DNA from: Candidatus Velthaea sp.
GTDB lineage: Bacteria; Vulcanimicrobiota; Vulcanimicrobiia; Vulcanimicrobiales; Vulcanimicrobiaceae
Direction of reading: 5' to 3'
NCBI GenBank assembly: GCA_050012475.1
Contig: JBEKHC010000039.1
Span: 1 to 64,000, forward strand
Length of the DNA: 64,000 nucleotides
A program made the position numbers and the translations under genes. The notes below the pieces were generated by a model. It saw nothing but the letters and a program-made list of their open reading frames with translations, was not told the DNA's origin and did not search any database. Positions 10,399 to 52,074 of the stretch are shown piece by piece (positions within the stretch are counted from its first letter, which is position 1; every line of letters starts with the position of its first letter).

Positions 10399-10400
10399 TC

Positions 10401-24763: not shown

Positions 24764-24830
24764 GGTTCAATCTCCATTTGTGAAAGTGGCACAGAAGGTG
24801 TCGGGGAGTGAGCGACGGCAGCGATTGGAG

Positions 24831-25394: not shown

Positions 25395-25398
25395 GACT

Positions 25399-26607: not shown

Positions 26608-26705
26608 AAGGACCTCCTGCAAAGAGAGTTAGCGCGGGGAGATCGGCGCGATGCCGTCCGGCGCGCAAGGAACGCGGCGGCGGCCGCAGGGCGGACGCGC
26701 CGACG

Positions 26706-32182: not shown

Positions 32183-32305
32183 ACTCCGGTTCGATAGCTC
32201 TTGCGCGGCATTCGGATCGGCGTCCGATCTTCATCCCGGCGTTGAAGATTTGTCGCCTGACATTTGCTGCTGGACAACCGTGCCGACGTCACGTATAGTA
32301 GACGG

Positions 32306-32386
32306 ATGTTACGGATTGCCGTCTCCAACCTGCAATTGAATTCGACCCAATGGTGTCGGGTCCAGGCGTGGTTCATCATGCGCTGA
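32306..32386 (+). CDS. Single-Cys attenuator leader peptide L6 (sbp-xsc-HOT)
   Basis: MLRIAVSNLQLNSTQWCRVQAWFIMR*; TGGACA 32271-32276, TATAGT 32294-32299, ATG 6 nt later. Confidence 0.6.
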   Translation: MLRIAVSNLQLNSTQWCRVQAWFIMR

Positions 32387-32440
32387 CGTGCAGTCCGCGC
32401 GGACTTTCGAGCCGCGCTGCCAACAAATCTCTCGCTGATG

Positions 32441-32471
32441 ATCCCCGCGCCAGTATGGTGCGGGGATTTTT
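32441..32471 (+). terminator. Attenuator terminator L6
   Basis: ATCCCCGCGCCA/TGGTGCGGGGAT then TTTT. Confidence 0.75.
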
Positions 32472-32533
32472 CATTTTCGGGCCCCTCCCTGATTCCGGCT
32501 TGCGTCCCTGATGTGATACGAAACACGGAGCAT

Positions 32534-33655: not shown

Positions 33656-35351
33656 CACCGAGCGAAGCCTTTGTGGAAACGCTCCGCGCCGAGGGCGTCA
33701 CGCTCGTCCCCGGGATCGTCGGCTCCGCCTACATGGACGCGCTCGACTTGTTTCCCGCGGCCGGAATCCGGTTTGTTTCGGTAGCCCACGAACAAAACGC
33801 CGTGCACATGGCCGACGGTTTAGGCCGCGTCAGCGGCAAGCCCAGTGTCGTTATCGCGCAAAACGGCCCCGGAACTACGCATTTCGTTACCGGCGTGGCC
33901 GCTGCGTACTGGGCGCACACGCCGATGGTGGTGGTCACGCCCGCGGTCGGATCGCTCGGTGTCGGTCTGGGGGGATTTCAGGAAACCGAACAGCTGCCGA
34001 TCTTCTCGAAAATCACCAAATGGCAAGTCGCGGTCAATCGCCCGGAGCGCATGGCGGAACTCCTGCGGCGTGCGTTTTACATCGCCAAAGCAGAGCTGGG
34101 ACCCGTTCAAGTTGACATTCCGCGCGACTATTTTTAGGCGACTTCTTCACCGAAATCTATCCGTCGCTGACGCTCGAACGCGGCTCCGGAAACCCCGCTC
34201 AAATCGCGGCCGCCGCCGAAGCGCTCGCCAACGCACGGTATCCGGTGATCCTTGCCGGCGGCGGCGTCGTTGCAGGCGACGCGCTCGCGGAGACGCGCGA
34301 ACTTGCCGAATTCCTCAGCGCTCCCGTCGCATCTTCGTATCTGCACAACGATGCGTTTCCGTACGACCACGAGCTCGCCGTCGGCCCGCTTGGATATCAA
34401 GGTTCGAAGGCCGCGATGGAAACGATCGCGCAAGCCGACGTGGTTCTCGCACTCGGTTCCCGGCTGGGCCCGTTCGGCACGCTTCCCCAGTACGGTCTGG
34501 AGTACTGGCCGCCGAACGCGCGTGTCATTCAAGTCGATGCCGATCACCGCGTCTTGGGCTTGACCAAACGCCTCGAGCTGGGCATCTGCGGCGATGCGAA
34601 GCAAACCGCGCGCGCCATCCTCGAGCGACTGCGCACGGTCGCTCCCGGCCGCGTGCGCAACGGCGATACCGTCCGCGGCATCACGCAACGCCGCGAGGCG
34701 TGGCGCGCCGAACTCGCCGGGCTGTCGTCCAAGACCGGCACGCCGATCAGCCCGCGGCACGCGCTCAAAACGGTCGCCGAAGCGCTGCCCGACAATGCGG
34801 TCGTCACCACCGACATCGGCAACATCTCGTCGGTCGCCAATAGCTATCTGCGCTTCAAAGATCCCCGCCGCTTTCTAGCCGCGATGAGTTTCGGCAATTG
34901 CGGCTACTCCTACCCGACGGCGCTCGGTGCGAAGCTCGGCCGGCCGGACCTCCCGGTCGTCGCCTTTATCGGGGACGGCGCGTGGGGGATGAGTCTAGCC
35001 GAAGTGATGACGGCGGTTCGCGAGAACATTCCCGTCGTGGCGATCGTTTGGAACAACAACCAGTGGGGAGCGGAAAAAAAGAACCAGATCGATTTCTACG
35101 ACAATCGCTTCCTGGGCGCAAACCTGCAAAACCCAGATTTTGCCGGGATCGCGCGCGAAATGGGCGCGAACGGCTATACGATCGAGCACGCATCCGAAAT
35201 CGCCGGAACGTTGCGCGAAGCCATTGCGTCGGGCCGCCCGTCGGTGATCAACCTGCTGGTCGACTCTGAGGAGCTGGGCGATCCGTTCCGGCGCGACGCG
35301 CTCAAGAAGCCGCAGCGGTTCCTCGAGCGTTACGCACATCTCAATGCCTGA
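33580..35351 (+). pseudogene. xsc: Sulfoacetaldehyde acetyltransferase (TPP), frameshifted at about 34136
   Basis: MTPSEAFVETL, GSAYMDALDLF, GPLGYQGSKAAM, MSFGNCGY, GDGAWGMS, WGAEKKNQIDFY, LGDPFRRDAL; one base missing at TATTTTTAGGC. Confidence 0.85.
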
Positions 35352-36668: not shown

Positions 36669-36726
36669 CGCAGCCTGCCGGACGGTGACAGTTGACATCG
36701 GGGACGACGGGATGCTAACCTGGCCC

Positions 36727-36804
36727 ATGGTCTTGTGCCTCCATCTTGCCCCGTGTCGTTGTCGTGCTTGGGTGTCGGTACGGAAGAGTGTTGTGCGCGG
36801 ATAG
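36727..36804 (+). CDS. Cys-rich attenuator leader peptide L7 (tauC pair)
   Basis: MVLCLHLAPCRCRAWVSVRKSVVRG*; TTGACA 36692-36697, TAACCT 36716-36721, ATG 5 nt later. Confidence 0.75.
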   Translation: MVLCLHLAPCRCRAWVSVRKSVVRG

Positions 36805-36829
36805 TTTCTGCGTTTTCTCCCTGCTGCGT

Positions 36830-36860
36830 AACCCTCTGCCAAGTCCGGCGGGGGGTTTTT
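36830..36860 (+). terminator. Attenuator terminator L7
   Basis: AACCCTCTGCC/GGCGGGGGGTT then TTT. Confidence 0.75.
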
Positions 36861-36889
36861 CCTTTCGCAGGTCCTGAAAGGCAGTCGTA

Positions 36890-37717
36890 TTGGATATTGC
36901 GTCGACGCAAGCGTCACCGTCGACCCGGACGAAAAGGCGGTTCCGCGCACGGGATTACTCGAATCAACTCTTGAGCATCGCCTCCGTTTGCTTGGGGTTT
37001 CTTGCGTGGCAGTTGCTGCACGCATCGGCGATCATCTCGCCCGAACTGCTGCCGGGGCCGGGTGACGTTTTCAATGCGTTCCTTCAGATCGTGCATGAAG
37101 GTTACCGCGGAACGACGCTTGGGCAAAACATCTTGTCGACGCTGGGCCGTTGTGCGAGCGGGTTTCTGTTGGCCTGCATCAGCGGCATTCCGCTGGGCCT
37201 CTGGATGGGGATGAGCCGGCCGGTCGCCGCAGCGGTCGATTACATCGTGCAGTTCATGCGGCCGCTGCCGCCGCTCTCGTATCTGATCCTGCTCATTCTC
37301 TGGTTCGGAACGGGAAATACATCGAAGATCGGGCTGTTGTATTTGACCGCTTTTCCGATCGTGGTGAGCAGCGCGATGGCCGGCGTTCGCAGCGTGAAGA
37401 CGCAAAAACTTCAGGCTGCCTATTCCCTTGGTGCGTCACGTTGGCAAGTCTTTCGTTACGTCGTGTTCCCGTCGGCGTTGCCGACGATTTTCACCGGTAC
37501 GCGAATTGCTCTCGCCGCCGCCTTCTCAACCGTGGTTGCAGCGGAACTCATGGCCGCAACGGATGGGCTGGGCTGGATGATCGTCTCGGCGAGTCAGTTT
37601 TTGCGCAATGACGTCATCATTCTGGGCATCATCATCCTCGGTGTCCTCGGGTTGTCGCTGAACCGGCTCGTGCTCGCGCTCGAGCAAGCCACCGTGCACT
37701 GGCGAAGCGTCGAATGA
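36890..37717 (+). CDS. tauC: Taurine/sulfonate ABC permease 1
   Basis: RPLPPLSYLILLILWFG, VAAELMAATDGLG, HW at C-terminus. Confidence 0.8.
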   Translation: MDIASTQASPSTRTKRRFRARDYSNQLLSIASVCLGFLAWQLLHASAIISPELLPGPGDVFNAFLQIVHEGYRGTTLGQNILSTLGRCASGFLLACISGIPLGLWMGMSRPVAAAVDYIVQFMRPLPPLSYLILLILWFGTGNTSKIGLLYLTAFPIVVSSAMAGVRSVKTQKLQAAYSLGASRWQVFRYVVFPSALPTIFTGTRIALAAAFSTVVAAELMAATDGLGWMIVSASQFLRNDVIILGIIILGVLGLSLNRLVLALEQATVHWRSVE

Positions 37718-38502
37718 GTCGCGTTGCTGCTCGTATCTTCTCCGGCGGCGAATGGCGTTTCACGCTCTTGAGCGTCGCGATTTTGGCGGCGGCGTGGGTG
37801 GCCGTTACCTCCAGCGGCCTCGTGCGCGATCTGTTCCTCCCGGGGCCGGCGCTGCTGTGGTCGGGGTTGGTCGATCTGGTCGAAAACGGCTACAAGAGCC
37901 GTCCGCTCTGGATGCACTTCGCCTTCAGCATCGAGCGAGTGCTGCTGGGCTTCGGAACCGGAGCGGTCTTCGGCATCGTGCTCGGTCTCGCGATGGGATA
38001 CTATCGCAGAGTCGACGCCATCTTCAGCCCGTACGTCGAGTTCTTGCGGCCGCTGCCGCAGCTTGCGTACCTGCTGCTGCTGATCGTTTGGTTCGGCATC
38101 GGCGAAACGCCGAAAATCGTCCTGCTCTTCCTTACGGCGTTCCCCGTCGCCGCGGTCGCAGCACGTGATGGGGTGCGCAACACGTCGCAGCTCCGCATCA
38201 AAGCGGCCCGCTCACTGGGCGCGAACGAATTCCAGATCTTTCGCTATGTGATCTTTCCATCGGCGCTCAGCGACATTTTCACCGGTGCGCGGCTGGCGAT
38301 CGGCATTGTCTATGCGACTTTGATCGCGGCCGAGATCATCGCGGGGAGCACCGGGATCGGCTGGATGGTGTTCGACGCAGGCCGCTACCTGCGATCCGAC
38401 TACGTTTTTGTCGGTATCGGCCTGATCGGACTTACGGGCTTAGCTCTCGATCGCCTGATTTTGTCGATCGAGAAGCGCACCGTCCACTGGGCCGGGAAGT
38501 GA
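37714..38502 (+). CDS. tauC: Taurine/sulfonate ABC permease 2
   Basis: RPLPQLAYL, WFGIGETPK, HWAGK. Confidence 0.8.
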   Translation: MSRVAARIFSGGEWRFTLLSVAILAAAWVAVTSSGLVRDLFLPGPALLWSGLVDLVENGYKSRPLWMHFAFSIERVLLGFGTGAVFGIVLGLAMGYYRRVDAIFSPYVEFLRPLPQLAYLLLLIVWFGIGETPKIVLLFLTAFPVAAVAARDGVRNTSQLRIKAARSLGANEFQIFRYVIFPSALSDIFTGARLAIGIVYATLIAAEIIAGSTGIGWMVFDAGRYLRSDYVFVGIGLIGLTGLALDRLILSIEKRTVHWAGK

Positions 38503-38537
38503 TTGACATGGCGTCCAACCGAGTGCTAATCTGGCTC

Positions 38538-38618
38538 ATGTACTCGCGCCCATGTCTCTGCCGGTGCTGCTGTTGCCTTTCGTTTCCGCGAACCCGGGAG
38601 AGTTTTGTGCGCACGTAA
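38538..38618 (+). CDS. Poly-Cys attenuator leader peptide L8 (tauAB)
   Basis: MYSRPCLCRCCCCLSFPRTRESFVRT*; TTGACA 38503-38508, TAATCT 38527-38532, ATG 5 nt later. Confidence 0.85.
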   Translation: MYSRPCLCRCCCCLSFPRTRESFVRT

Positions 38619-38645
38619 TTTTCAACGATTCATCTTCGTTGCGTG

Positions 38646-38677
38646 AACCCTCTGCCGAGTTCGGCGGAGGGTTTTTT
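38646..38677 (+). terminator. Attenuator terminator L8
   Basis: AACCCTCTGCCG/CGGCGGAGGGTT then TTTT. Confidence 0.85.
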
Positions 38678-38729
38678 GTTTCGCCGTTTTGTGAAGTTCA
38701 CACTTGAACGTCACGCTGAAAGGAAACTC

Positions 38730-39791
38730 GTGAGCGCATCTTTGTCAGAGCCGAGTCACCCATTCGACCGCCGCACGTTTTTGCGAGCCGCCGGGCTCGG
38801 CGTCGGAGCGGCCGCACTCGGCTTTCCGCTTTCGCTGCCGGCATCGGCCGCTGTCCCCGACACGACCAACATCGCCTTCTTCACGGAAACGAAGCCGACG
38901 GAGATCGCCAAGGGTCAGGGCTGGTTTGCCGAGGGGACGAAGGGCAAGATCAACTGGAGCGAGGTCGGCAGCGGCGCCGAAATAAACACGGCAATCGCAG
39001 CCGGCTCCGTCGACATCGGTCTGGGCATCGGCTCCGCACCCACGGCAGCCGGCATCAGTCAGGGCATTCCCTACCAGCTCGTCGGGATCATCGACAACAT
39101 CGGTCCGGCCGAAGAATTAACGGTGCGCAAGACGGCGAACATCAAGACACCGGCCGATCTCAAGGGGAAGAAAATCGGCGTCCCGTTCGGGTCGACCTCG
39201 CACTTTCGTTTGTTGGGTTTTCTCAAAGAGAACGGCTTGACGGAGAGCGACGTCACCGTCCTGGATTTGCGGCCGGACGCACTGGTCGCGGCCTGGCTTC
39301 GCGGCGACATCGACGGCGGATACGTCTGGAGCCCGGCAAAATCGAAGCTGCTGGCCAACGGCGGCGTGCCCTTCCGCACCTACGACAAGCTCGACGCTGC
39401 CGGATATGTCATCGCGGACCTCATCGTCGCGCGCACCGCCTACGTGCAGCAGTATCCCGAGGCGGTCAGCGGCGTCCTGCATGCGTACGGCCGCGCGCTT
39501 GCGTTGTGGAAAACCAAACCTTCGGACGCGGCCGAGATCGTCGGCAAACAGGCCGGTGTGAGCGCCGAGGTCGCGCGTCACGATCTCGACGAATACGATT
39601 TCGTGCCGCTTCGCGAGCAGCTGACGCCGACATGGTTGGGCGACCCTGGACACCCGGGTCAGTTCGCCGCGGTGCTCAAACGCACGGCAGATTTCCTGGT
39701 CGAACTCAAGAGCATCCGCTCCGCGCCCGACCTGACGGCGTTTCAGACCGCAGTCAACACCAGCCCGTTGGCGCAGGCCGCACGTGCTTGA
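38730..39791 (+). CDS. tauA: Taurine/sulfonate ABC substrate-binding protein (Tat signal)
   Basis: DRRTFL signal, DLKGKKIGVPFGSTSHF, AAWLRGDIDGGYVW. Confidence 0.8.
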   Translation: MSASLSEPSHPFDRRTFLRAAGLGVGAAALGFPLSLPASAAVPDTTNIAFFTETKPTEIAKGQGWFAEGTKGKINWSEVGSGAEINTAIAAGSVDIGLGIGSAPTAAGISQGIPYQLVGIIDNIGPAEELTVRKTANIKTPADLKGKKIGVPFGSTSHFRLLGFLKENGLTESDVTVLDLRPDALVAAWLRGDIDGGYVWSPAKSKLLANGGVPFRTYDKLDAAGYVIADLIVARTAYVQQYPEAVSGVLHAYGRALALWKTKPSDAAEIVGKQAGVSAEVARHDLDEYDFVPLREQLTPTWLGDPGHPGQFAAVLKRTADFLVELKSIRSAPDLTAFQTAVNTSPLAQAARA

Positions 39792-39797
39792 GCGAAC

Positions 39798-40586
39798 GTG
39801 ACGAGTTCGCCCTTCGTCGAATTCGACGATCTGTCGATCGAATTCGCATCGAGTGACGGACCCGTCTTAGCGCTCGACCACGCTTCGCTGCACTTCGAGG
39901 AAGGCGCGTTCGTCTGTATCGTCGGACCCTCGGGCTGCGGCAAGACGACCTTGCTCCAAACGCTCGCGGGATTTCTCAAGCCGACAAGCGGCACCGTTCG
40001 GCTCGACGGCCGGGTCATCGACGGACCCGGCGCCGACCGCGGCGTCGTCTTCCAGCAGCCGGCGCTTTTTCCGTGGATGACCGTGGCAAAAAACGCCGGT
40101 TTCGGTCTCATGGTGCGCGGCACCGCCGACAGCGAACAACAAGCCGCAGTCGAATCATACCTGCGGTTCGTGGGTTTATGGGATTTTCGCAACCGTTATC
40201 CGTACGAGCTCTCCGGCGGGATGCAGCAACGGCTGGCGATCGTGCGCGCACTGGTCAACGATCCCAAGGTCCTGCTCATGGACGAGCCATTCGGCGCTCT
40301 CGACGCCTTGACGCGCGAGAAAATGCAGGAAGAGCTGCACACGGTCTGGCGGCGCACGAAGAAAACGATCGTGTTCATCACGCACGGTGTCGAGGAGGCG
40401 GTCTACCTCGGCACCGAGGTCGTCGTGATGTCGCCGCGACCCGGCCGAATCCTCGAACGCCTGCCCCTGCCGTTCGCTCGCAACGGTGAAGACCGTGACA
40501 TTCGCGCCGTCAAGTCGAGTCCGGAGTTCGTCGCGCTGCGCGAACACGTGTTGTCGCTGATCTGGAAAACAGCCGACGCATTCTAA
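39798..40586 (+). CDS. tauB: Taurine/sulfonate ABC ATP-binding protein
   Basis: GPSGCGKTT, GPGADRGVVFQ, LSGGMQQR, KSSPEFV. Confidence 0.85.
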   Translation: MTSSPFVEFDDLSIEFASSDGPVLALDHASLHFEEGAFVCIVGPSGCGKTTLLQTLAGFLKPTSGTVRLDGRVIDGPGADRGVVFQQPALFPWMTVAKNAGFGLMVRGTADSEQQAAVESYLRFVGLWDFRNRYPYELSGGMQQRLAIVRALVNDPKVLLMDEPFGALDALTREKMQEELHTVWRRTKKTIVFITHGVEEAVYLGTEVVVMSPRPGRILERLPLPFARNGEDRDIRAVKSSPEFVALREHVLSLIWKTADAF

Positions 40587-40587
40587 G

Positions 40588-42291
40588 CTACACCCCGATC
40601 GCCATGCTTTGCATCGACTGGGCCGGCGGAAATGCCATCGCAGCGACAAAGACCTTGGTAAACCCTGGATCGGTCGCGAGCTCGATCGACTCGACCGCAC
40701 GGGTTACGGCGAGCAGCGCGCCGCGGGCATCCGCGTTGACCAGCAGCGCTTCGGCGCCCGTGCGCGCGGTGTTGCCGACAAACGTGACTCTGCCTTCAAG
40801 TTGGGGCGGAAACAGACCAATGTCGATGAGGCTGCGCGTCGTGAGGTGGTAGCCGAACGAGCCCGCGACCAGCACCCGGTCCAGATCCGCAGGCACGAGT
40901 CCGTTATGTGCGAGCATCGTATCGATGCCGGCCCGGACGGCTGCTTTTGCCAGTTGCACTTGCCGGATATCGCCTTGGCTGAGATACACGTCGCCGGACA
41001 AATGAAAAACCGTTTTTCCGTCGCGCGGGCGCAAGCGATCGCGTAACGCCGGCGACAGCTGCGTCACCTTGCGCGTGAACCGCCCCGAGCTTTCGACGAC
41101 GCCGGTAACGACCATCGCGGCGAGCGCTTCGATCAAGCCGCTGCCGCAAATCCCGACGGCATCCGCACCGTCGATGGTCGCCACCCGGATGTCGTCGCCG
41201 TCGACTGCAACGCGTTCCACGGCGCCGCGCGCGGCACGCATACCGCAGGCGATGTTCATGCCCTCAAAGGCCGGCCCCGCAGCGGTCGATGTCGCTTGCA
41301 GCCGGCCGTCGCGCGCCAATACCATCTCGCCGTTGGTGCCGATGTCGACGAATAGCGTCACGCCGCCGGCGTTCGGCAGATCGGTCGAGAGCACGCCGGC
41401 GGCGATATCCGCGCCCACGAATCCCGAAATAAGGGGTGGAAAATAGATCTCGGCGCACGCGGCGACACGCAAACCCAGGGACCCGGCGGCGCGCGACTCA
41501 TCGCCCGCGAGCGCCGGCGTGTACGGAAAACGTCCGAGCGGTTCGGGGCTGACGTTGGCGGCAAGGTGCATCATGCACGTATTTCCGGCAACGACCACTT
41601 CGTAGATGCGCCGGCGCGGAATGCGGGCTTCCGCGGCGAGCAATCCGATCATGCGGTCGATCTCGGCCATCAGCTCGTCGTGCAACAGCGCCAAACCGTC
41701 CGCTTGCGATGCAATCTGCACGCGCGACAATACGTCCTGGGCGTGGGCGACCTGTGGATTGAGCGCGGCAACGGAACCGACGCGCGCTCCAGTCCCCAGA
41801 TCGAGTAAAGAGGCAACGAGCGTCGTCGTTCCGATGTCGACTGCGACCCCGTAGAGGCGGGTCGTCGTGTCGCCGTTTTCTTCGGCCAGCTGCCGTTCAC
41901 CCGAACTCACAATGGTGCACCGGCGCTCGTCATCGTAGCTTTTTCGAATGGCCGGGCGCACCGGCAGATCCAGCCGAAGACCGTCTTCGAGGATTCGCAG
42001 GCCGCGCTCGCCCGAACCCGGCAAGGTAACGTCCAGATCCCCCTCGACGAGCGTACTGCACAAGAGCACGCCGCCTTCCGCGACTTGCTCGCTCGAAAGC
42101 CCGCGGGTCGAAACGATGCGCGCTCGCGTCTGCCCTACCGCGTCCAGACGCACGCGGCACTTGCCGCAGGTGCCGACGCCGTTGCACGGTGCTTCCAAGC
42201 GGACGCGAGCCAGTCGCGCGGCGTCGAGCAGCGAGCTGCCGACGGGAACCTCCGCGCTCGCACCGGTGGGGAGAAACGTGACGATCGGCAT
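40588..42291 (-). CDS. ASKHA-family reductive activator of corrinoid proteins with N-terminal 2Fe-2S domain
   Basis: CNGVGTCGKC...C, DIGTTT, DIGTNGE, AAGPAFEG, GICGSG, QLAKAA. Confidence 0.9.
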   Translation of the reverse strand: MPIVTFLPTGASAEVPVGSSLLDAARLARVRLEAPCNGVGTCGKCRVRLDAVGQTRARIVSTRGLSSEQVAEGGVLLCSTLVEGDLDVTLPGSGERGLRILEDGLRLDLPVRPAIRKSYDDERRCTIVSSGERQLAEENGDTTTRLYGVAVDIGTTTLVASLLDLGTGARVGSVAALNPQVAHAQDVLSRVQIASQADGLALLHDELMAEIDRMIGLLAAEARIPRRRIYEVVVAGNTCMMHLAANVSPEPLGRFPYTPALAGDESRAAGSLGLRVAACAEIYFPPLISGFVGADIAAGVLSTDLPNAGGVTLFVDIGTNGEMVLARDGRLQATSTAAGPAFEGMNIACGMRAARGAVERVAVDGDDIRVATIDGADAVGICGSGLIEALAAMVVTGVVESSGRFTRKVTQLSPALRDRLRPRDGKTVFHLSGDVYLSQGDIRQVQLAKAAVRAGIDTMLAHNGLVPADLDRVLVAGSFGYHLTTRSLIDIGLFPPQLEGRVTFVGNTARTGAEALLVNADARGALLAVTRAVESIELATDPGFTKVFVAAMAFPPAQSMQSMAIGV

Positions 42292-42294
42292 TGG

Positions 42295-43329
42295 TCAGGC
42301 CCGGTGCCCGGTCTTCACCGCGCCGGTCAGGGCTCGAATATTGTCGAGACCCGTCGATGTGCTGAGTCCGCAGGCCGGGGCGATAATGTCGACACCATCA
42401 TGCACGAGCCGCTCGGCGCTGCGCTGGACCTTGTTCGCGTCAGCGAATTCCAGCAGCGCGGTACTGAGGTTTCCCATCGTCGTGATTTGCGGATAGTCTG
42501 CTTTGAGCCGCACCAGGCTGACTTTCGCGTCGACGCTGATCGCATCGGCGTGCAGATCGGCGAGGTAGTGGCGACTGCGGCTCATATCACCGCAAATATG
42601 AACGATGACGGGCTTGCCCGCCGCATGCACCGCATCGCACAGCAGGTTGAGGTAACGCACCGCAAACGAGCTGAAAATCGCCGGCCCCAAGATCTCGCCG
42701 GTCGCCGTAGGATCGCCGATCGCGATCACGTCGGCGCCGTTGCGAGCAACTTCCTGCGCGTAAGCGACGAGCAGCCGGGTGATGTAATCGAGCACGCGAT
42801 GCGCGTCGCGCGGTTTGGTGCGCAATTCCTTGAGAAAGCTGAGCGGGTCGACGACCGAAGCAGCCGTGCTGATCGGCCCGGAAAGCGTCGCAATCACCGG
42901 CACGTCGGGGTTGCGCGTTTTGAGCTGATAAGCGGCTTGAATGACCGTCCCGATGCGCCCGCTGCGCACGAGTTGCTCAACGTCGTGAATCTCCACGTCG
43001 CTCGACGAAGCATAGGCCTCCGCCGCGATTTTCGGCTCGCACGAAAGCGAGCCCGAGTCGATGCGGCTGCCGAGCACCTCCGGCTCGACGGTCATGCAGA
43101 ACGGAACCCCGAGATTTTCGAATCCCGTCTTCGCGCGCACGCGTTCGGCAAGTTTGGTCATGCTCTCCGATGAGTAGTGCGCTTGCGGCAGTTTGGGCGA
43201 GTCATCCTCGTCCATCACGCCGACGACCGCCGCGTTGAGCATGCCACCGGTGCAGATGACGGGAGGCCGGTCGACTTGCTCGTTGGCGAGCACGCGCACC
43301 AGGCGTTCGCGCGGAGCAAGCTCAAGCAC
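42295..43329 (-). CDS. UroD-fold methyltransferase (MtaA/CmuA family)
   Basis: PFCMTVE, DPTATGEILG, HICG, APACG. Confidence 0.85.
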   Translation of the reverse strand: MLELAPRERLVRVLANEQVDRPPVICTGGMLNAAVVGVMDEDDSPKLPQAHYSSESMTKLAERVRAKTGFENLGVPFCMTVEPEVLGSRIDSGSLSCEPKIAAEAYASSSDVEIHDVEQLVRSGRIGTVIQAAYQLKTRNPDVPVIATLSGPISTAASVVDPLSFLKELRTKPRDAHRVLDYITRLLVAYAQEVARNGADVIAIGDPTATGEILGPAIFSSFAVRYLNLLCDAVHAAGKPVIVHICGDMSRSRHYLADLHADAISVDAKVSLVRLKADYPQITTMGNLSTALLEFADANKVQRSAERLVHDGVDIIAPACGLSTSTGLDNIRALTGAVKTGHRA

Positions 43330-44386
43330 GAGCGGTTCTCTCCGGCGCGAAAACCGCCGGCAGACCGGTCACGGCAGCGGTCAGTGCGGCGATGTTGGCC
43401 AGGCTGGTGGCGCTTGCCAAACCGCAAGCCGGCGAGACAACGTCGACGCCGCCGCGCACAAGACGGGCACCGACGTTTGCAATTTGGCCAGGCTCTCCCT
43501 GATGCAACAGAAACGTGCTGACGTTGCCTACCACGGCCAACTGCGGAAAGGCTTGGGCGAAGTACTGCAGCGACACCGCGGCATCGGGAATGAAACCATC
43601 GCAGCGCAACGTGCGAAGCTGCGCATCGACGCGGTCGAGGTGACCGCACATGTGCACGAGCACGCGCGCCCCGGTCTGCGCAACCGCGTCGATGAGCCGC
43701 TGCAAATGCGGCAGAACGCTGCGCTCGAAGACCGCCGGACCGGCGAGTGCGGGAGTGACCGTATCTTCGTGAATGACGATGACGTCGGCACCGGCCGCGA
43801 CCAGCTCGCGCGCAAAACCGATCTCGAAGTCCGTGACGTGCTCGACGAGCGAGCGCACATCATCGGGACTTTTGCGCAGCTCGCGAAAGAACGCATCCGG
43901 GCGCACGGCCGCAGCCGCGACGCTGACGGGCCCGATTAGATTCCCGATGATCGGTAAATCTTCCGCGGTCTCGGTCAACCGGCGCACCGCCGCCACCGAG
44001 ATCCCGATGCGCCCGCGCTGCAAACGCTCGTCCACGGGGACGCGCGGCACGTCCGCACACCGCTCGTAGGGTTCGCGCACGACCCGTGCTTCCGTGGCCT
44101 CGTCACCGAGATCGACGATCGCGCCGAATGCTTCCGCCTCGACCGTCGTGCAGAGCGGAACCCCGACCGATTCGAACCCGGTGAGACGCGCAGCCGCCAG
44201 CGCCAGACCGGCCATCGCCGCCGCGTCCGAATGCGCGTCGGGCAACCGGTAGCCCGAACGAATCACGACTTCCGCCGGGACGCCGCTCATGCTGCCGCCG
44301 CTGCAAATGACCGGGGGACGATCGACGGGGAGGCGCGCGAGCGCCTGCAGCAAACGGGCGCGACGATCCAATGCGGCGCTCACCAT
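43322..44386 (-). CDS. UroD-fold methyltransferase (MtaA/CmuA family)
   Basis: PLCTTVEAEAFG, HMCG, SPACG. Confidence 0.85.
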   Translation of the reverse strand: MVSAALDRRARLLQALARLPVDRPPVICSGGSMSGVPAEVVIRSGYRLPDAHSDAAAMAGLALAAARLTGFESVGVPLCTTVEAEAFGAIVDLGDEATEARVVREPYERCADVPRVPVDERLQRGRIGISVAAVRRLTETAEDLPIIGNLIGPVSVAAAAVRPDAFFRELRKSPDDVRSLVEHVTDFEIGFARELVAAGADVIVIHEDTVTPALAGPAVFERSVLPHLQRLIDAVAQTGARVLVHMCGHLDRVDAQLRTLRCDGFIPDAAVSLQYFAQAFPQLAVVGNVSTFLLHQGEPGQIANVGARLVRGGVDVVSPACGLASATSLANIAALTAAVTGLPAVFAPERTARA

Positions 44387-44391
44387 TGCAA

Positions 44392-45474
44392 CTAATAGTG
44401 CCCGTAGAGCCGGGCGGCCTTGACCATGGTCGCGGCGCTGAGCAGGTTGCCGTTGGGCGGAAACTCGCAGCCGCTCGAGAGGATGAACCCGCCCTCGGCA
44501 ACGCGGAAGGTTTCGATTTGCTGACGGCATTCTTCGAGCAGATCCGCTTGGCTGAACTCGTGACCGGCCTTCGCGGGGTCGATGACGCCGATGGTCACGA
44601 CCTTCTTCCCCCAGTTCTGCGCGTGCGCCGTGAGGTCGGCCGAGCCGTAGGCCGGATACGCGTGCGAGATCGCAATCGGTTCGATGTGCTCGATTACCGC
44701 GTCGAAATACACGCCGTTACCGCAATTGTGCACGATCACGGGTACGCCGGCGGCGCGAACTGCGTCAGCGATCGGATGCATGAACACGCCCTCGAAATCG
44801 ACCCAGGTCTGTTTCTTGAGAATCGACGCCGAGGAATACAGCGGATCGAGGACGATGGCGTGCGCTCCCGCCTCCACTTGGGCGACAGCGTACTCGACGA
44901 GCACGCCGGTAATCGTGTTCACCGCTTCGAGCACGCGATCGGGATGGCGGATCAAATCTTTAAACAATTCGGCATGACCGCGAATCTGCGACAACACGCC
45001 CAACGGGCCATACACGAAACCCATCACCGCGACGTCCTTGCCGCGCGCTTCAGCGAGACCGCGCACGATCTCGATGACGCCGCTGGTGCGGCGCGATTTG
45101 CGCGGATCGAAAGCGCGCACTTTCCCGTACTCCTGCGCCGTTGCAATAAACGGATTGTCGAAGTTCGGGAGCGCCGTGCTCCAATCGGGGAAGAGCACTT
45201 CTTGGCCGAAGTCTTCGGCTTCGACCGACAGGTCGACCAGGGTGAGCCAGCCGTCGAACCCGATCAGTTCTTGCGCCGCGAGCAGGCTGGCCGTCGCGGC
45301 CTTCGCATCCTGCGACCAGCGGCCGTACGAGATGCCCAAGACGCGGCCCGAGGCGCCGCAGACGAGCGGCGCCGCCGGTACCCGGTCGGGCTTTTTGTAT
45401 TGCAGCGCCAGTCCGACCCGTTCGAGCGACGTCAGTTGGTCGCGCTGGGCCGTGGCGGTTCCGTTGGTGCTCAT
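44392..45474 (-). CDS. UroD-fold methyltransferase (MtaA/CmuA family)
   Basis: PDRVP, DLSVEAEDFG, HNCG, FILSSGCE. Confidence 0.85.
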   Translation of the reverse strand: MSTNGTATAQRDQLTSLERVGLALQYKKPDRVPAAPLVCGASGRVLGISYGRWSQDAKAATASLLAAQELIGFDGWLTLVDLSVEAEDFGQEVLFPDWSTALPNFDNPFIATAQEYGKVRAFDPRKSRRTSGVIEIVRGLAEARGKDVAVMGFVYGPLGVLSQIRGHAELFKDLIRHPDRVLEAVNTITGVLVEYAVAQVEAGAHAIVLDPLYSSASILKKQTWVDFEGVFMHPIADAVRAAGVPVIVHNCGNGVYFDAVIEHIEPIAISHAYPAYGSADLTAHAQNWGKKVVTIGVIDPAKAGHEFSQADLLEECRQQIETFRVAEGGFILSSGCEFPPNGNLLSAATMVKAARLYGHY

Positions 45475-46133
45475 GCCGCGTGCACGACTTCAGTCAGGCG
45501 TTTTGCCAGTTGCACGGCGAGCGTCGCCTTCGCCGCGTAGCCGTCGGCTCCGATGCGGTCGGCGAATTGCTGCGAGAGCGGAGCGCCGCCGACGATCACT
45601 TTGAAGCGCTCGCGGATGTCCTCGGCTCGGAGTATTCGGACGACTTGCGCCATCTGATCCATCGTCGTCGTCATGAGCGTCGAAAGTGCGATCACGTCGG
45701 CATTCACTTCCAACGCGCGATCGACGAACGTTCGGGCCGGCACGTCGCGGCCCAGATCGAAGACCTCGAAACCGGCAACTTCGAGCATGATCCGCACCAA
45801 ATTCTTGCCGATGTCGTGCGTGTCGCCGGCAACCACGCCGATGACGACCCGGCGACCGCGCACGGACGATTCCTGACGAATATGGGGCTGCAGGATCGCG
45901 AGGCCGGCATACATCGCATCGGCCGCAATCAAGAGTTCGGGAACGAAGTACTCCTCTTCGTCAAAGAGTTTTCCCGCCGCATTCATGCCGGCAATCAACC
46001 CATGTTCGACCGCCGCCCAAGCGTCGAGGCCCTGCGTGACTACCTCCTGCGACAGCTCGGCCGTCAACGGCTCGTCAAGCTCGAGAACCGCGTTGGCTAG
46101 AGCGGCATGCAGCTCATCAGGATCTTCGGACAT
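45471..46133 (-). CDS. Corrinoid (B12-binding) methyl-carrier protein
   Basis: YFVPELL, GDTHDIGKN, DLGRDVP, STLMTTT, VGGAP. Confidence 0.9.
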   Translation of the reverse strand: MSEDPDELHAALANAVLELDEPLTAELSQEVVTQGLDAWAAVEHGLIAGMNAAGKLFDEEEYFVPELLIAADAMYAGLAILQPHIRQESSVRGRRVVIGVVAGDTHDIGKNLVRIMLEVAGFEVFDLGRDVPARTFVDRALEVNADVIALSTLMTTTMDQMAQVVRILRAEDIRERFKVIVGGAPLSQQFADRIGADGYAAKATLAVQLAKRLTEVVHAA

Positions 46134-46180
46134 AACATCTCCTTCTGTCGAAAGCGGCGCGTCCGGACGGCCGCGCAGAG

Positions 46181-46426
46181 TCAGTCATCATCGAGCTGCG
46201 CGACACCATTCACGAGCTCGATCCTTTCGTGGCTGCAGGCACCGGCGCACGCCCCGCATCCCGCACAGCGTCCGCTATCGATACTGATGCCTTCGTCGAC
46301 GCGCGTAACCGCGTCGTTGAAACACACTTCCGTGCAAGGCGCTTCACAAACGCGACAGACCCCGTCGGACGGTCCGCGATCCGAAGCTGGTTGACCCACA
46401 CCCGATGACGCCACGAAGATCGACAT
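46181..46426 (-). CDS. 4Fe-4S ferredoxin; start uncertain, may be the 3' part of a frameshifted gene starting near 46574
   Basis: CRVCEAPCTEVC and CAGCGACAGAC. Confidence 0.7.
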   Translation of the reverse strand: MSIFVASSGVGQPASDRGPSDGVCRVCEAPCTEVCFNDAVTRVDEGISIDSGRCAGCGACAGACSHERIELVNGVAQLDDD

Positions 46427-46595
46427 TCAACAAGCGGTCTTTCTGATCGAGAGAACCGGCGCTCAGATGGTCGAGCATCGCGTCGAGCGCTTTTAAGTCA
46501 GTACCGACATCGACGTTCAAGCCGGCGATTCGACCGCGTAGGCCGTGCCCGCTGGTCCGGTACCTTCGAGCCACACCGCAATGTCGCGTTTGGAA

Positions 46596-46636
46596 GAAAA
46601 ATGACGAAGCCCCTCACCGAACCGGCGAAGGGCTTC
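46596..46636 (-). terminator. Attenuator terminator L9
   Basis: Minus GAAGCCCTTCGCCG/CGGTGAGGGGCTTC then GTCATTTTTC (imperfect U tract). Confidence 0.6.
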
Positions 46637-46674
46637 TTCGCAGAATAGCGCGGTGCGCTAACCCGCGGTGAAAC

Positions 46675-46734
46675 TCACCGGCCCATTCGAAGGGGCCGGG
46701 TACACCACTGCGCTAACGCACGAGAGAGAAGCAT
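46675..46734 (-). CDS. Single-Cys attenuator leader peptide L9 (corrinoid operon)
   Basis: MLLSRALAQWCTRPLRMGR*; minus TTGACA 46773-46768, TACTAT 46749-46744, ATG 9 nt later. Confidence 0.6.
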   Translation of the reverse strand: MLLSRALAQWCTRPLRMGR

Positions 46735-47048
46735 TGCTTAATGATAGTAGCTGTTTGACGGTTCATGTGTCAAGCAGATGAATGCAGTTCTCAAACACAT
46801 GTGCTAAAGCAATTGCTATGCTTTATTGGAATTAAATCGTTTGCTCCGCATGTTGCCGGTTTGCTCGCTGCGCGCTTTCGACAGGGATGCCGCGCTGCAA
46901 CGAGCATTCGACGCTAACTTAGGGTCAACTATAATTTAACGTAGGGCCGACAAAATGCAAAATGCCGGCACCCATTATGCAATCGCTGCTTAACTACTTC
47001 ACGACGGAAGCGAACTTCCGGACGCGACGTACGAGCAGCTCCGCCTCT

Positions 47049-47708
47049 TCACTTCGCGCGATGATCGATTTGCTGCGTGACCCGATCGCCGCCGGCCTGA
47101 ACCGCGCACACGAACGCGATCAGCACCAGGACGACGGCGATCATCACGGTCGTCTCAAAGCGCTGATACCCGTAGCGGATCGCGAGGTCGCCCAAACCGC
47201 CCGCGCCCACCGCACCCGCAACGGCCGACTCGCCGATGAGCGAGATCAACGTCACCGTAAAGCCCGCCGACAGCCCGGGGAGCGCCTCGGGAACGAGCAC
47301 TTCCCAGACGATCGTGGCGCGGTTCGCTCCCATCGCGCGCGCCGCTTCGATCAGGCCTCCGTCGACTTCGCGCAGCGAGACTTCGGCGATGCGGGCAAAG
47401 TATGGGATCGCCGCGATCGACAGCGGGACGATCGCCGCCAACGTGCCGATCGACGTGCCCGCGATCAGCCGCGTAAACGGAATGAGCGCAACCATCAAGA
47501 TGATGAACGGGACCGAACGAAACGAATTGACGACCGCGCCAAGGATCCGGTTGACCGTCGGTTGTTCGACGATTCCGCCGCGATCGGTGCATACCAGAAC
47601 GAGGCCGATCGGCAACCCGATAAGGAGTGCGATAAGGCCCGAAGCGCCGACCATCAGCAGCGTTTCGAGCAGGGCCTCAACCGTGAGGTTAACGATCTGA
47701 GTTGAGAT
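47049..47708 (-). CDS. metI: Methionine-type ABC permease (probable ATC start at 47708)
   Basis: RSVPFIILM, EVDGGLIEAA, GAGGLGDLAIRYGYQRF; GGAGGT 8 nt before in-frame ATC. Confidence 0.85.
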   Translation of the reverse strand: MSTQIVNLTVEALLETLLMVGASGLIALLIGLPIGLVLVCTDRGGIVEQPTVNRILGAVVNSFRSVPFIILMVALIPFTRLIAGTSIGTLAAIVPLSIAAIPYFARIAEVSLREVDGGLIEAARAMGANRATIVWEVLVPEALPGLSAGFTVTLISLIGESAVAGAVGAGGLGDLAIRYGYQRFETTVMIAVVLVLIAFVCAVQAGGDRVTQQIDHRAK

Positions 47709-49668: not shown

Positions 49669-49690
49669 AAAATCTTGCGCTCCCGCGTCT

Positions 49691-49768
49691 TTAGACGCGC
49701 GCAAACCTCTTCCGACCTATTATGGGCGCCGACGAACACCGACACATCGCGCTGGCGGAAGAACTCAT
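49691..49768 (-). CDS. Cys-containing attenuator leader peptide L10 (metQNI-1)
   Basis: MSSSASAMCRCSSAPIIGRKRFARV*; minus TTGACA 49804-49799, TAGCGT 49780-49775, ATG 6 nt later. Confidence 0.75.
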   Translation of the reverse strand: MSSSASAMCRCSSAPIIGRKRFARV

Positions 49769-50126
49769 GGCGCTACGCTACCATCCCGTTGCGCGGCGTG
49801 TCAACCATCGCCCACGCCAACGTTGCCTTTCCGCTCCAACTCGCCGGACCGCCGCGCAGCGAGATCGCAGCGCGCGGTGGTCTTTGCAGGCGCCACGTCA
49901 TTTCCGTGGGCGCAACATCGCGCTCGAATCCCAACCGCGCGAAATCGTGCGTAGCGACCAGGCCGCGCAGGACGAGCCTCCCATCGTTCGCGCGCTCAAG
50001 CGTGTCGGATTGACCGCGTTTGCGCGCCCGCGCGGGGACGGCCGAACGCTGTTCGAGATAAACGTTCGCCGGATGGGCGATCCGGCAGGCGGGTCCTCGC
50101 ACAGCCGCGTAAGTTGTCGCTCTGCA

Positions 50127-50312: not shown

Positions 50313-51605
50313 ATGAAATCTTATTTCGCGATCGCTCTTTGCGCGATCGTCGCCGGCCTGCCGTCTGCCGCGCTGGCAACTGACGGGTATTTCACTCTCG
50401 GGACGGGCCCGATCCAAGACGGGCTGGCTGGGGCGGGCGTCGCACTTCCGCAAGATAGCGCGGTTGCGGCCGTCAACCCCGCAGGCCTCGTTCGCGTCGG
50501 CAACACCTGGGAGTTCGGCGCCGCACTTTTCGCACCGTATCGGCAATATTCGGTGGACGGAACGCCGTCCGGTGCGACCGGGACGTTCGGGCTCGCGCGC
50601 GGCACCGTGAAAAGCTTGGACGATAACTTTCTGCTTCCGCACGCATCGTTGAGCCGTCGAATCGACACGAAATCCGCCTGGGGCCTGGCCTTTTACGGCA
50701 ACGGCGGCCTGAATACAACCTACCCGGGGGCAGGTCCCGGGACGGGTACCTTCTTCGCGGGCCCGACCGGCGTCAATCTCGTGCAGATCTTTCTCGCGCC
50801 CACCTATTCCCGCGCGATCGGCGACAAACTCGCGGTCGGGGTCTCGCTGACCGGATCGTACCAGGCGTTTCGTGCGACGGGGTTGGCGAACTTCGGACCG
50901 TTCGTAAGCGACGGCCATCCTGGCAATCTTGCCAATCGCGGCGCGGAAGGCTCATGGGGAGTCGGCGGCCGTGTTGGGGTGCTCTACGACGCGACGCCGG
51001 CCTTGACGCTCGGCGCGGCATATCAGAGCGTTACGTCACAGTCGTCGTTCGCGAAGTACGCGGACCTTTTCGCGCAGCAAGGTAGCTTCAACATTCCGGC
51101 GACGGCCACGGCCGGTCTCGCCTGGAAATTCGCGCCGTCCGTGGTCGCGCTCGACGTCGAGCACATCTGGTACGGCCGCATCGCGGCGGTGGCGAATCCA
51201 TTTTCCAATCTCAACATCGGCCTGGCCACGGGCAACCCGTCGTACTTGCTCGGGGGCACGAACGGTCCGGGATTCGGCTGGCACGACACCACGTTCTACA
51301 AGGCCGGATACCAAATCGCGTTGTCGCAGCGCCTGACGTTGCGCGCCGGTGCCGCCTATGGACGGCAACCAATTCCGTCGTCCGACGTGTTGTTCAACAT
51401 ACTCGCACCGGCGGTTACCGAATGGCACTTCGCGCTTGGAGGAACGGTGAAGACGACCAACCATGGCGAAGTGAGTGCGGCCGTCGTCGACGTGCCAACG
51501 GGCTCGGTGAGCGGACCAAACCCGCTCGAGGTGCCCGGACGCCAGCAGATCATGCTCGCGATGCATCAATTCGAGATCGAAGTCGGCTACGGCCGCAAAT
51601 ATTGA
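50313..51605 (+). CDS. OmpP1/FadL-family outer-membrane transporter
   Basis: Signal peptide, ATDGYF, GLAGAGVA, NPAGL hatch motif, GNGGLNT, GFGW, NILAPAV. Confidence 0.85.
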   Translation: MKSYFAIALCAIVAGLPSAALATDGYFTLGTGPIQDGLAGAGVALPQDSAVAAVNPAGLVRVGNTWEFGAALFAPYRQYSVDGTPSGATGTFGLARGTVKSLDDNFLLPHASLSRRIDTKSAWGLAFYGNGGLNTTYPGAGPGTGTFFAGPTGVNLVQIFLAPTYSRAIGDKLAVGVSLTGSYQAFRATGLANFGPFVSDGHPGNLANRGAEGSWGVGGRVGVLYDATPALTLGAAYQSVTSQSSFAKYADLFAQQGSFNIPATATAGLAWKFAPSVVALDVEHIWYGRIAAVANPFSNLNIGLATGNPSYLLGGTNGPGFGWHDTTFYKAGYQIALSQRLTLRAGAAYGRQPIPSSDVLFNILAPAVTEWHFALGGTVKTTNHGEVSAAVVDVPTGSVSGPNPLEVPGRQQIMLAMHQFEIEVGYGRKY

Positions 51606-51612
51606 TGGAACG

Positions 51613-52074
51613 ATGATAATACACCCCGCACCTGCGCAATCCGATTGCATCACGCTCATCCCGCTATCGATCGTCCGGCTCAACCGGTTGACGATTTTGT
51701 GCAGCGTGATCCTCGCTTACGTGCTGCACGCACCGCTCATTACGACCGCGTTGTTCGTCATCGTGACGCTCGCCGCCGGTTTCGGGCGCCGCGCCAGCCT
51801 CATCTATGCCGTCGGCCGGCTCGTTCTGCGACCGGCCAAGCCGGCAACCGACGGTGAAGACCCGCGCTTGATGCGCTTCAACAACACGCTCGCCGCGATC
51901 ATCCTCGGTCTCGCGCAAGTCGCTTTCGTTCTGCACGCACCGCTCGTTGGTTGGATTTTCGCCGGCCTGGCCGCGCTCGCCGCGGCGGTCGCGCTTGCCG
52001 GCTTCTGCTTCGGCTGTTTCTTGTTCTACCAGTTTAAACTCAACCGCGCCCGGCTCTTTGGTTCGACGAAGTGA
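51613..52074 (+). CDS. DUF4395-like membrane protein
   Basis: VRLN, EDPRLMRF, GFCFGCFLF. Confidence 0.7.
   Translation: MIIHPAPAQSDCITLIPLSIVRLNRLTILCSVILAYVLHAPLITTALFVIVTLAAGFGRRASLIYAVGRLVLRPAKPATDGEDPRLMRFNNTLAAIILGLAQVAFVLHAPLVGWIFAGLAALAAAVALAGFCFGCFLFYQFKLNRARLFGSTK

Follow-up and report, generated by a model that had tools for sequence, protein, structure and literature searches.

A six-gene corrinoid methyl-transfer operon

Here, we describe a predicted corrinoid-dependent methyl-transfer operon in a 64,000-nucleotide (nt) window, positions 1 to 64,000 of contig JBEKHC010000039.1 (assembly GCA_050012475.1, a metagenome assembly of 5.36 Mb in 204 contigs, 93.8% complete with 5.3% contamination). 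Open reading frames (ORFs) and domain profiles identify six tightly packed genes on the minus strand at 46426-40588, encoding a ferredoxin, a corrinoid protein, three methyltransferases (MTa, MTb and MTc) and an activase, RACo. Their junctions overlap or are 0–47 nt apart (Table 1). A first-pass annotation of this DNA had listed the same genes, with HxC...C zinc-type motifs in three MtaA/UroD-fold methyltransferases and a DTHDIG motif in the corrinoid protein, behind a leader termed L9 and between tau and metNIQ transporters. All six genes are indeed present on the minus strand, and the motifs can be read in the respective translations. A promoter-like site, a short ORF and a terminator-like hairpin make up the leader; metQNI lies 5′ on the same strand and tauCCAB converges on the operon from its 3′ side.

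Table 1. Features of the operon, its flanks and the related leaders, in window coordinates.
Feature	Position	Strand	Description
Sigma-70-like promoter	46773-46744	-	TTGACA, 18-nt spacer, TACTAT; 10/12 consensus matches
Leader short ORF	46734-46675	-	19 codons plus stop, one Cys codon
Terminator-like hairpin	46636-46606, with T-run to 46596	-	14 pairs, 9 of them G-C; between leader ORF and ferredoxin gene
Ferredoxin	46426-46181	-	81 amino acids; eight Cys, CxxCxxxCxxxC ... CxxCxxCxxxC; 4Fe-4S type
Corrinoid (B12-binding) methyl-carrier protein	46133-45471	-	220 amino acids; DxHxxG motif DTHDIG
MTa	45474-44392	-	360 amino acids; URO-D 164 bits; divergent UroD-fold zinc methyltransferase
MTb	44389-43322	-	355 amino acids from in-frame ATG; URO-D 204 bits; MtaA-like zinc methyltransferase
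MTc	43329-42295	-	344 amino acids; URO-D 232 bits; MtaA-like zinc methyltransferase
RACo	42291-40588	-	567 amino acids; Fer2 (N-terminal 2Fe-2S), Raco_middle, RACo_C_ter; ASKHA domain
metQ-metN-metI	49745-47049	-	ATP-binding cassette (ABC) importer 5′ of operon; own promoter and Cys-containing leader ORF
tauC, tauC, tauA, tauB	36890-40586	convergent	3′ of operon
ssuA-like leader	~12570-12740		4 Cys codons
cbs leader	19740-19900		2 Cys codons
tauC leader	36690-36880		3 Cys codons
tauA leader	38503-38690		6 Cys codons, four of them consecutive
mlp leader	46596-46773		1 Cys codon
metQ leader	49690-49810		2 Cys codons
Sbp-like gene leader	~32260-32480		similar; missed by cassette filter, class membership probable

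RACo-type activases carry out the ATP-driven reduction of Co(II) corrinoid proteins, and UroD-fold zinc enzymes shuttle methyl groups between thiol(ate) and cobalt. The corrinoid protein matches PF02310 (B12-binding, 92 bits) and PF02607 (B12-binding_2, 64 bits) and resembles MtgC, MtbC and pyl_corrinoid, with scores under the equivalog cut-offs. RACo scores 373 bits with an AcsV-like model (cut-off 800), and its domains identify it as a RACo/Ram-type ATP-dependent reductive activase of corrinoid proteins. The ferredoxin passes the LdpA_Fe-S-bd model (31.3 bits, cut-off 27.6), Fer4 models being marginal; it is likely the electron donor for corrinoid reactivation.

All three methyltransferases carry a zinc motif (VHNCG/GCE in MTa, VHMCG/PACG in MTb, VHICG/PACG in MTc). 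The zinc residues of MTc line up with H-I-C and P-G-C of MtaA of Methanosarcina mazei (4ay7), and H249, C251 and C336 of the MTa family are invariant in 18 of 18 aligned sequences. A UroD fold with a His-Cys-Cys zinc site, by which soluble coenzyme M methyltransferases are recognized, is found here too. PRK06252, a broad subfamily model with a cut-off of 244, is passed by MTb (298 bits) and MTc (355 bits) but not by MTa (105 bits). None of the three reaches an NCBIfam equivalog, the best scores being 222 against 400 for MtaA_Meth and 199 against 600 for MtbA. MtaA 4ay7 is matched in sequence by MTb (E 2e-43) and MTc (E 5e-43). It is also the top structural match of the AlphaFold model of MTa (predicted local distance difference test score 89), at a TM-score of 0.81–0.86 and 20% identity in the structural alignment, followed by true uroporphyrinogen decarboxylases.

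Relation to published mlp gene clusters

Clusters of this sort were defined by Kountz and Balskus as "mlp gene clusters" in a 2023 preprint (PMC10418091, cited throughout from part of its text), the one account of the type that we found in the full-text literature. By their definition, the genes are all co-directional, gaps are at most 2 kb, and no tetrahydrofolate methylase homologue lies within 20 kb; type I clusters contain both Mlp2 and Mlp3. Most type I clusters are tied to selenium, about 90% being linked to selenium traits, and in vitro the Mlp2 of Clostridium ljungdahlii (ClMlp2) methylates selenide and, more slowly, sulfide. For a non-selenium clade, distinguished by its Mlp3, the preprint proposes methyl-sulfur metabolism or methionine salvage, S- or Se-methyl transfer being proposed from the His-Cys-Cys site together with gene context. 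This clade is said always to have MarHDK-like genes, either within the cluster or at another place in the genome. Among the type I, non-selenium carriers without SelABCD in the supplementary table are Rhodoblastus acidophilus DSM 137, R. sphagnicola DSM 16996 and Rhodovastum atsumiense. The table gives C. ljungdahlii ERI-2 two type I clusters, one with a non-selenium Mlp3; this second cluster, Acetobacterium and Heliobacterium are listed in the non-selenium clade (PMC10418091).

The window operon agrees with this definition in composition (three URO-D proteins, one B12-binding protein, one RACo) and in its compact, co-directional arrangement. No PF00809 tetrahydrofolate methylase gene lies within 20 kb or elsewhere on the operon's contig (C39); matches fall only on contigs C31, C100 and C20 (MetH), in a search that did not include MtrH-type models. 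As to Mlp3, MTc is 41% identical to ClMlp3 and 53% identical to U2, the Mlp3 of the second C. ljungdahlii cluster, and it groups with the Mlp3s of Acetobacterium, Heliobacterium and that same cluster. The counterpart of Mlp2 is less clear: MTa is 22% identical to ClMlp2 and forms its own clade, yet the preprint's table still lists the Rhodoblastus carriers of its orthologue as type I. No SelD was found above the cut-off in the 93.8%-complete genome (best match 94.8 bits, cut-off 125), in line with a non-selenium cluster. Genes like MarHDK were not found in this incomplete genome, whose eight PF00148 matches are all accounted for by nifD, nifK, nifE, nifN, bchN, bchB, bchY and bchZ.

Judged by sequence, then, the operon is a real mlp-type cluster. 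Because it agrees with the cluster definition, and because its Rhodoblastus orthologues stand in the preprint's own table, the kind is already in print; so is the methyl-sulfur idea put forward in the first-pass annotation, which is the same hypothesis (PMC10418091).

The operon nevertheless departs from the published type I clusters of the non-selenium clade in several respects. It lacks a ClMlp2-type Mlp2 and has instead MTa and a second enzyme from the Mlp3 side of the tree, MTb; it adds a ferredoxin gene; it is preceded by a leader with a Cys-containing short ORF and a terminator; and its genome has no detected Mar-like genes. Carriers are described in the preprint as obligate anaerobes (PMC10418091), whereas the present host is a bacteriochlorophyll-containing, nif-carrying alphaproteobacterium with oxygen-dependent monooxygenases. 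The preprint's own table, too, includes clusters that contradict a restriction to obligate anaerobes.

Relationships of the three methyltransferases

The two clusters of C. ljungdahlii, which we found in the same strain ERI-2, offer a reference for the individual enzymes. ClMGC consists of Mlp1, Mlp2, corrinoid protein, Mlp3 and activase; the second cluster consists of corrinoid protein, U1, DUF1638, U2, RACo, U3 and an MFS transporter. It is the second that the window resembles more closely. Its corrinoid protein is 60% identical to ours, and U1 is 61% identical to MTa, which reaches only 24% with ClMlp3 and has no match to ClMlp1. MTb is 34% identical to ClMlp3 and 39% to MTc.

We placed the enzymes in a tree of 55 proteins (129 before dereplication at 80% identity; IQ-TREE quick mode, LG+G4, HemE outgroup) that took in no reference coenzyme M methyltransferases. 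The MTa family forms a clade of 25 sequences with a Shimodaira-Hasegawa-like approximate likelihood ratio (SH-aLRT) support of 100 and a stem of 1.1 changes per site, sister (support 94) to a group with ClMlp2 and U3. The opposite side of the tree (SH-aLRT 96) takes in MTb, MTc, ClMlp3 and ClMlp1. The sequences suggest that MTc is an orthologue of the Mlp3 of non-selenium clusters, and in this tree the subclade of MTb is seen only in Proteobacteria and Verrucomicrobia. Three clusters (L023, L050, L035) contain both MTa and an Mlp2-like enzyme, which indicates that MTa is a further lineage and not just the local Mlp2.

Gene neighborhoods of MTa relatives

The first-pass annotation had proposed neighborhood conservation as a check on its sulfur hypothesis. 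A genome scan for MTa matched 284 stretches, 259 of which encode a relative; the best 80 were kept, representing 79 distinct loci. We call a locus close if its MTa is at least 57% identical (44 loci, window included) and distant if it is less than 57% identical (36 loci, L041-L081). Genes involved in sulfur metabolism (those for Cys/Met pyridoxal phosphate (PLP) enzymes, CysK/PALP enzymes and TauB-like ATPases) recur near close relatives (Table 2).

Table 2. Neighbors found by tblastn within 8 kb of MTa. Counts are lower bounds, as many loci stop at contig ends and matches needed at least 50% query coverage.
Neighbor	Close loci	Distant loci
Corrinoid protein	43/44	11/36
RACo	30/44	4/36
MTc-type methyltransferase	28/44	0/36
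CobW-like GTPase	26/44	31/36
Cys/Met-PLP enzyme	21/44	1/36
DUF1638	19/44	3/36
CysK/PALP enzyme	19/44 (12+7)	1/36
MTb-type methyltransferase	17/44	2/36
TauB-like ATPase	12/44	1/36
Nitrogenase-like genes	7/44	0/36
Rrf2 regulator	7/44	0/36
MetA	5/44	0/36
CbbQ-like ATPase	1/44	28/36
782-amino-acid protein	0/44	17/36
DUF2284	1/44	17/36
CbiM (with CbiQ)	1/44	12/36

From these counts, the sulfur link holds for the close clade only. The distant clade, whose hosts are Desulfobacterota, Thermincola and Desulfotomaculum-type Firmicutes, adjoins cobalt and chaperone-type genes, and the genomic context is therefore not transferable to the MTa family as a whole. The distant enzymes may have a different function, possibly in cobalt or corrinoid handling. 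Their 782-amino-acid neighbor has no Pfam match, and the AAA+ neighbor is of CbbQ/NorQ type. DUF1638 is frequent in Firmicute versions of the cluster, where it lies between MTa and Mlp3 (as in L050, C. ljungdahlii, 11436-12101), and does not occur in proteobacterial ones.

Distribution and acquisition

The gene order ferredoxin, corrinoid protein, MTa, MTb, MTc, RACo is common to Rhodopila, other alphaproteobacterial metagenome assemblies and Rhodoblastus; in R. acidophilus and R. sphagnicola, MTa is 79–80% identical to that of the window. A Thiodictyon contig has the same order from corrinoid protein to RACo and begins inside the corrinoid protein gene. The homologous ferredoxin gene stands directly 5′ of the corrinoid protein gene in 13 of the 44 close loci, all Alphaproteobacteria. 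Among the 11 alphaproteobacterial loci that extend past RACo, nine have a gene for a CobW-like GTPase on its 3′ side (L003-L010, about 14.8 kb), a gene that is missing after RACo in the window.

A sample of 150 other genomes from the host's family (78 genera, including three species of the same genus) yielded no MTa homologue. In a same-genus genome, tauCCAB is present at 74–82% protein identity, and nothing mlp-like follows tauB. On these grounds, the operon was probably acquired laterally and came to lie next to a tau operon that is native. Where the two meet (window 40584-40590), tauB and RACo converge with their stop codons 1 nt apart, and the junction looks like a recent insertion or deletion.

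Contigs from a metagenome run of another study match 46635-47225, from the leader to the metI junction, with zero differences. Near-identical DNA occurs in 20 listed runs (14 studies) whose labels read peat, soil or just metagenome; the assembly itself may derive from one of these runs. The operon is covered at low depth by contigs of four runs, and one contig spans leader to metI.

A leader shared with other sulfur operons of the window

A promoter scan found two sites where 0.3 were expected in shuffles. Since the ATG of the leader ORF lies 9 nt past the -10 hexamer, the transcript would be leaderless or nearly so. Six operons of the window share this layout: TTGACA, a 16–18 nt spacer, a -10-like hexamer, 5–10 nt, ATG, a Cys-containing short ORF and a terminator (Table 1). 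The whole assembly holds 15 candidates with a promoter and short ORF, of which eight have a terminator; six of the eight are those of the window, all with Cys codons, and the two elsewhere have none. In the same-genus genome, a short ORF with three Cys codons is kept 5′ of tauA despite diverged sequence. Such leaders may represent a cysteine-sensing attenuator class that is new for Alphaproteobacteria. In the full-text literature, we found an analogue for mycobacteria only, in polycysteine leaderless short ORFs that work by freeing a ribosome-binding site (10.1101/834739, cited from part of its text); in the window, terminators come after the ORFs instead.

Most of these leaders do not behave as classical attenuators in folding. 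When the positions that a ribosome would occupy while stalled at the Cys codons were masked, the terminator was left intact for mlp, tauA, tauC and sbp, and only the ssuA-like leader, one of five, lost it. A riboswitch is not apparent in the mlp leader, with no Rfam match there at the gathering score in a search of the window and none at E up to 1 in 46400-47060. Nor is the leader repeated as sequence: a 14-nt degenerate motif had 5 matches where 6.8 were expected, and blastn against the window returned no copy. Only the tauA and tauC leaders resemble each other in sequence (67% over 182 nt).

The first-pass annotation had the operon "wired into the sulfur-starvation regulon". The part of this claim that stands is a leader architecture common to the sulfur operons of the island; it is a matter of cis-architecture, and the mlp leader, with its single Cys codon, is the weakest member of the class. 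The shared design is the one piece of evidence that would place the mlp operon in a cysteine- or sulfur-responsive set.

Some relatives of the operon carry a different upstream element. Boxes of the form TTGAT-N4-ATCAA, which we take to be the FNR/FixK consensus, occur with at most one mismatch 5′ of the operon in 6 of 12 alphaproteobacterial relatives (L004, L006, L007, L010, L011, L040). They lie about 135–180 nt 5′ of the ferredoxin match in five relatives and 246 nt in L006. Such boxes would fit use under low oxygen. None was found in the Rhodopila assemblies, and in the promoter region of the window the best match has three mismatches, a score reached in 304 of 500 shuffles.

The surrounding island and the host genome

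The window is an organosulfur and sulfur-scavenging island. Along with tauCCAB and two metNIQ sets, it holds an Ssu-like ABC system, cystathionine beta-synthase (cbs), an Sbp-like protein, a Liv-type ABC system, xsc, a FadL-like channel and cysK. At 22310-26622 lie genes for two SfnG dimethylsulfone monooxygenases (568 and 607 bits), the FMN reductase MsuE, and SfnB. Together they make up an oxygen-dependent route for oxidized C1-sulfur compounds that shares the island with the corrinoid operon; the first-pass annotation had spoken of a genome that also uses O2-dependent flavin monooxygenases. An iron alcohol dehydrogenase of the island resembles sulfoacetaldehyde reductase, with a score under the model cut-off.

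Some features of the island are irregular. The xsc gene (sulfoacetaldehyde acetyltransferase, 33580-35351) is broken up, one ORF matching model positions 3-166 and a second 205-588, and the Sbp-like ORF (32438-33655) reads on into the xsc start and has an odd C-terminus. These could be frameshifts, pseudogenes or assembly errors. Divergent from metQ, at 50313-52074, are a FadL/TodX-type outer-membrane channel and a DUF4395 protein. One Rhodopila assembly (L046, ~4579) has a FadL homologue, 40% identical, 5′ of the operon. The channel could be an uptake path for hydrophobic sulfur compounds. Apart from the sulfur genes, the window has a fluoride riboswitch at 5009-5072 on the plus strand (47.3 bits, gathering score 34), directly followed by a run of genes like NADH dehydrogenase/Mrp antiporter subunits (5182-12416).

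The genome carries bchNB, bchYZ, bchC and nifHDKEN, which mark the host, a purple bacterium of peat, as a diazotroph with anoxygenic phototrophy. It also encodes MetH and additional proteins that bind B12.

Discussion

On balance, we favor assigning the operon to the non-selenium branch of the mlp-type clusters, with a probable role in corrinoid-dependent methyl transfer between sulfur atoms that would allow oxygen-independent use of methyl-sulfur compounds. A role in sulfur supply is plausible from the island, the neighbors of the close clade, the lack of detected selenium traits and the presence of SfnG, SfnB and MsuE. The sulfur link made in the first-pass annotation thus has island context, close-clade neighborhoods and a shared leader design behind it, though the idea was not new.

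In this scheme, the ferredoxin and RACo would use ATP and a low-potential electron to return the Co(II) corrinoid protein to Co(I). The His-Cys-Cys zinc site of MTa would accommodate a small methylthio compound, for which methanethiol, dimethylsulfide or an imported S-methyl amino acid are candidates, and MTa would hand the methyl group to Co(I). The sulfide or thiol released could then be converted by CysK or CBS to cysteine. MTb and MTc would unload methyl-Co(III) onto thiol acceptors, the most economical candidate being homocysteine, which would yield methionine. The promoter, short ORF and terminator of the leader would tie expression to cysteine supply in this genome. As a result, a phototroph would be able to use reduced methyl-sulfur compounds independently of oxygen, beside the oxygen-dependent SfnG/MsuE/SfnB route. 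The substrates, the division into loading and unloading enzymes, the role of the ferredoxin and the regulation are all parts that we infer; the opposite assignment of loading and unloading would fit the sequences equally well.

Several observations weigh against this interpretation. The published biochemistry is that of ClMlp2 alone, which prefers selenide to sulfide and to which MTa is so distantly related. The distant MTa-like clade sits next to cobalt and chaperone-type genes rather than sulfur genes. For every sulfur atom freed from a methylthio compound, a methyl group must find an acceptor, and no gene for a tetrahydrofolate methylase lies nearby. With regard to regulation, there is a single Cys codon in the mlp leader ORF, no antiterminator emerged when this leader was folded with a stalled ribosome, and the Rhodopila metagenome assemblies, in which the operon is most similar, lack the leader. 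Finally, there is no RNA run among the 20 listed runs with near-identical DNA of the locus.

Other functions can be envisaged. Kountz and Balskus discuss a scheme of methionine salvage or methyl recycling (PMC10418091), in which methyl groups of methylthioadenosine-derived by-products would pass via the corrinoid protein to homocysteine, both saving methyls and detoxifying. The frequency of Cys/Met-PLP and MetA genes among the neighbors, and the presence of MetH and other B12 enzymes in the genome, would suit such a role. We nonetheless consider it unlikely here, since the operon is located among importers and desulfonating enzymes for external organosulfur, not mtn-type salvage genes, and since none of the eight PF00148 matches is Mar-like. 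It is also conceivable, if quite improbable, that methyl groups flow in reverse. MTb and MTc would then take methyl from S-methyl donors such as methionine or S-methylcysteine, imported by the MetNIQ system encoded directly 5′ of the operon, and MTa would methylate sulfide to methanethiol, from which a sulfhydrylase would make methionine. Thiol-to-thiol methyl transfer is expected to be near equilibrium. ClMlp2, which falls on MTa's side of the tree, does methylate selenide and, more slowly, sulfide in vitro (PMC10418091). But this flow would consume sulfide during sulfur shortage, and the window has no O-acetylhomoserine sulfhydrylase gene.

Recycling of methyl-selenium, as proposed for most type I clusters, we regard as very unlikely. 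In the preprint, selenium traits are indeed linked with about 90% of these clusters, and dimethylselenide use with SdmC of Methanococcus voltae (PMC10418091). Against this, SelD is not detected above the cut-off, the MTc-type Mlp3 falls with the preprint's non-selenium clusters, and the neighbors are sulfur genes. There is similarly little reason to expect methylotrophy for carbon or energy, through demethylation of methoxylated aromatics, methanol or methylamines. Acetogen O-demethylases likewise combine UroD-fold enzymes with a corrinoid protein and an activase, but the His-Cys-Cys site, tied in the preprint to S and Se substrates (PMC10418091), is kept in all three enzymes. The contig has no PF00809 gene, and the window's genes include no partners of MttB, MtaB or MtgB type.

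Within the favored reading, methyl-sulfur use by an mlp-type cluster, a bolder proposal can be made, which we hold only tentatively and think rather doubtful as a whole. MTa may found a fourth Mlp lineage, the sulfur counterpart of the selenium-specific Mlp2/SdmC. It would transfer methyl groups from methanethiol or dimethylsulfide to the corrinoid and so set sulfide free for CysK. Purple bacteria living in peat with little sulfate would thereby gain a B12-dependent way, needing no oxygen, of turning volatile methyl-sulfur compounds into cysteine. A leaderless short ORF that senses cysteine, together with a terminator, would switch the route on in this genome; such a device has to date been described for mycobacteria alone.

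Comparison with known systems helps to place the operon. In Methanosarcina, a UroD-fold zinc enzyme and a corrinoid protein (MtsA/MtsB, MtpC/MtpA) demethylate dimethylsulfide or methylmercaptopropionate, MtsA performing both half-reactions. These methylthiol:coenzyme M methyltransferases use coenzyme M as acceptor and serve energy metabolism. The window proteins score under the MtaA and MtbA equivalog cut-offs. MtaA of M. mazei itself is the best match in sequence and structure, but no MtaB-type methanol methyltransferase partner is encoded among the window's genes. SdmABC of M. voltae comprises a corrinoid protein and Mlp2-type enzymes and is induced by shortage of the element that it recovers (PMC10418091). 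That element is selenium, from dimethylselenide, and not sulfur, and MTa is not orthologous to SdmC or ClMlp2. The methylthio-alkane reductase MarBHDK serves the same ecological end, since it allows volatile organic sulfur to be assimilated under anoxia; it is, however, a nitrogenase-like enzyme of an unrelated family that cleaves the C-S bond reductively, and it was not found in the genome of the window. Nitrogenase-like genes of the Mar kind and MTa-cluster genes are neighbors in 7 of the 44 close loci.

The operon is therefore best described as a member of a published but functionally unproven kind of cluster, for which the functional idea of the first-pass annotation gains some comparative support. 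Clusters of the mlp type are widespread, and their sulfur-type branch is without proven function; in the present case, one of the three methyltransferases belongs to a clade that the characterized ClMlp2 does not represent. Most known routes for acquiring sulfur from organosulfur compounds need oxygen, while anoxic, sulfate-poor habitats such as peat are rich in methylated sulfur compounds. Here, a candidate oxygen-independent system stands beside the oxygen-dependent SfnG/SfnB/MsuE genes for oxidized forms of the same compounds. Going by the cis-elements, one would predict that the operon is induced when cysteine is short in this organism, and at low oxygen in some of its relatives. Because culturable Rhodoblastus relatives carry the same operon, the locus offers a concrete and testable setting in which the function of the sulfur-type branch may be addressed.

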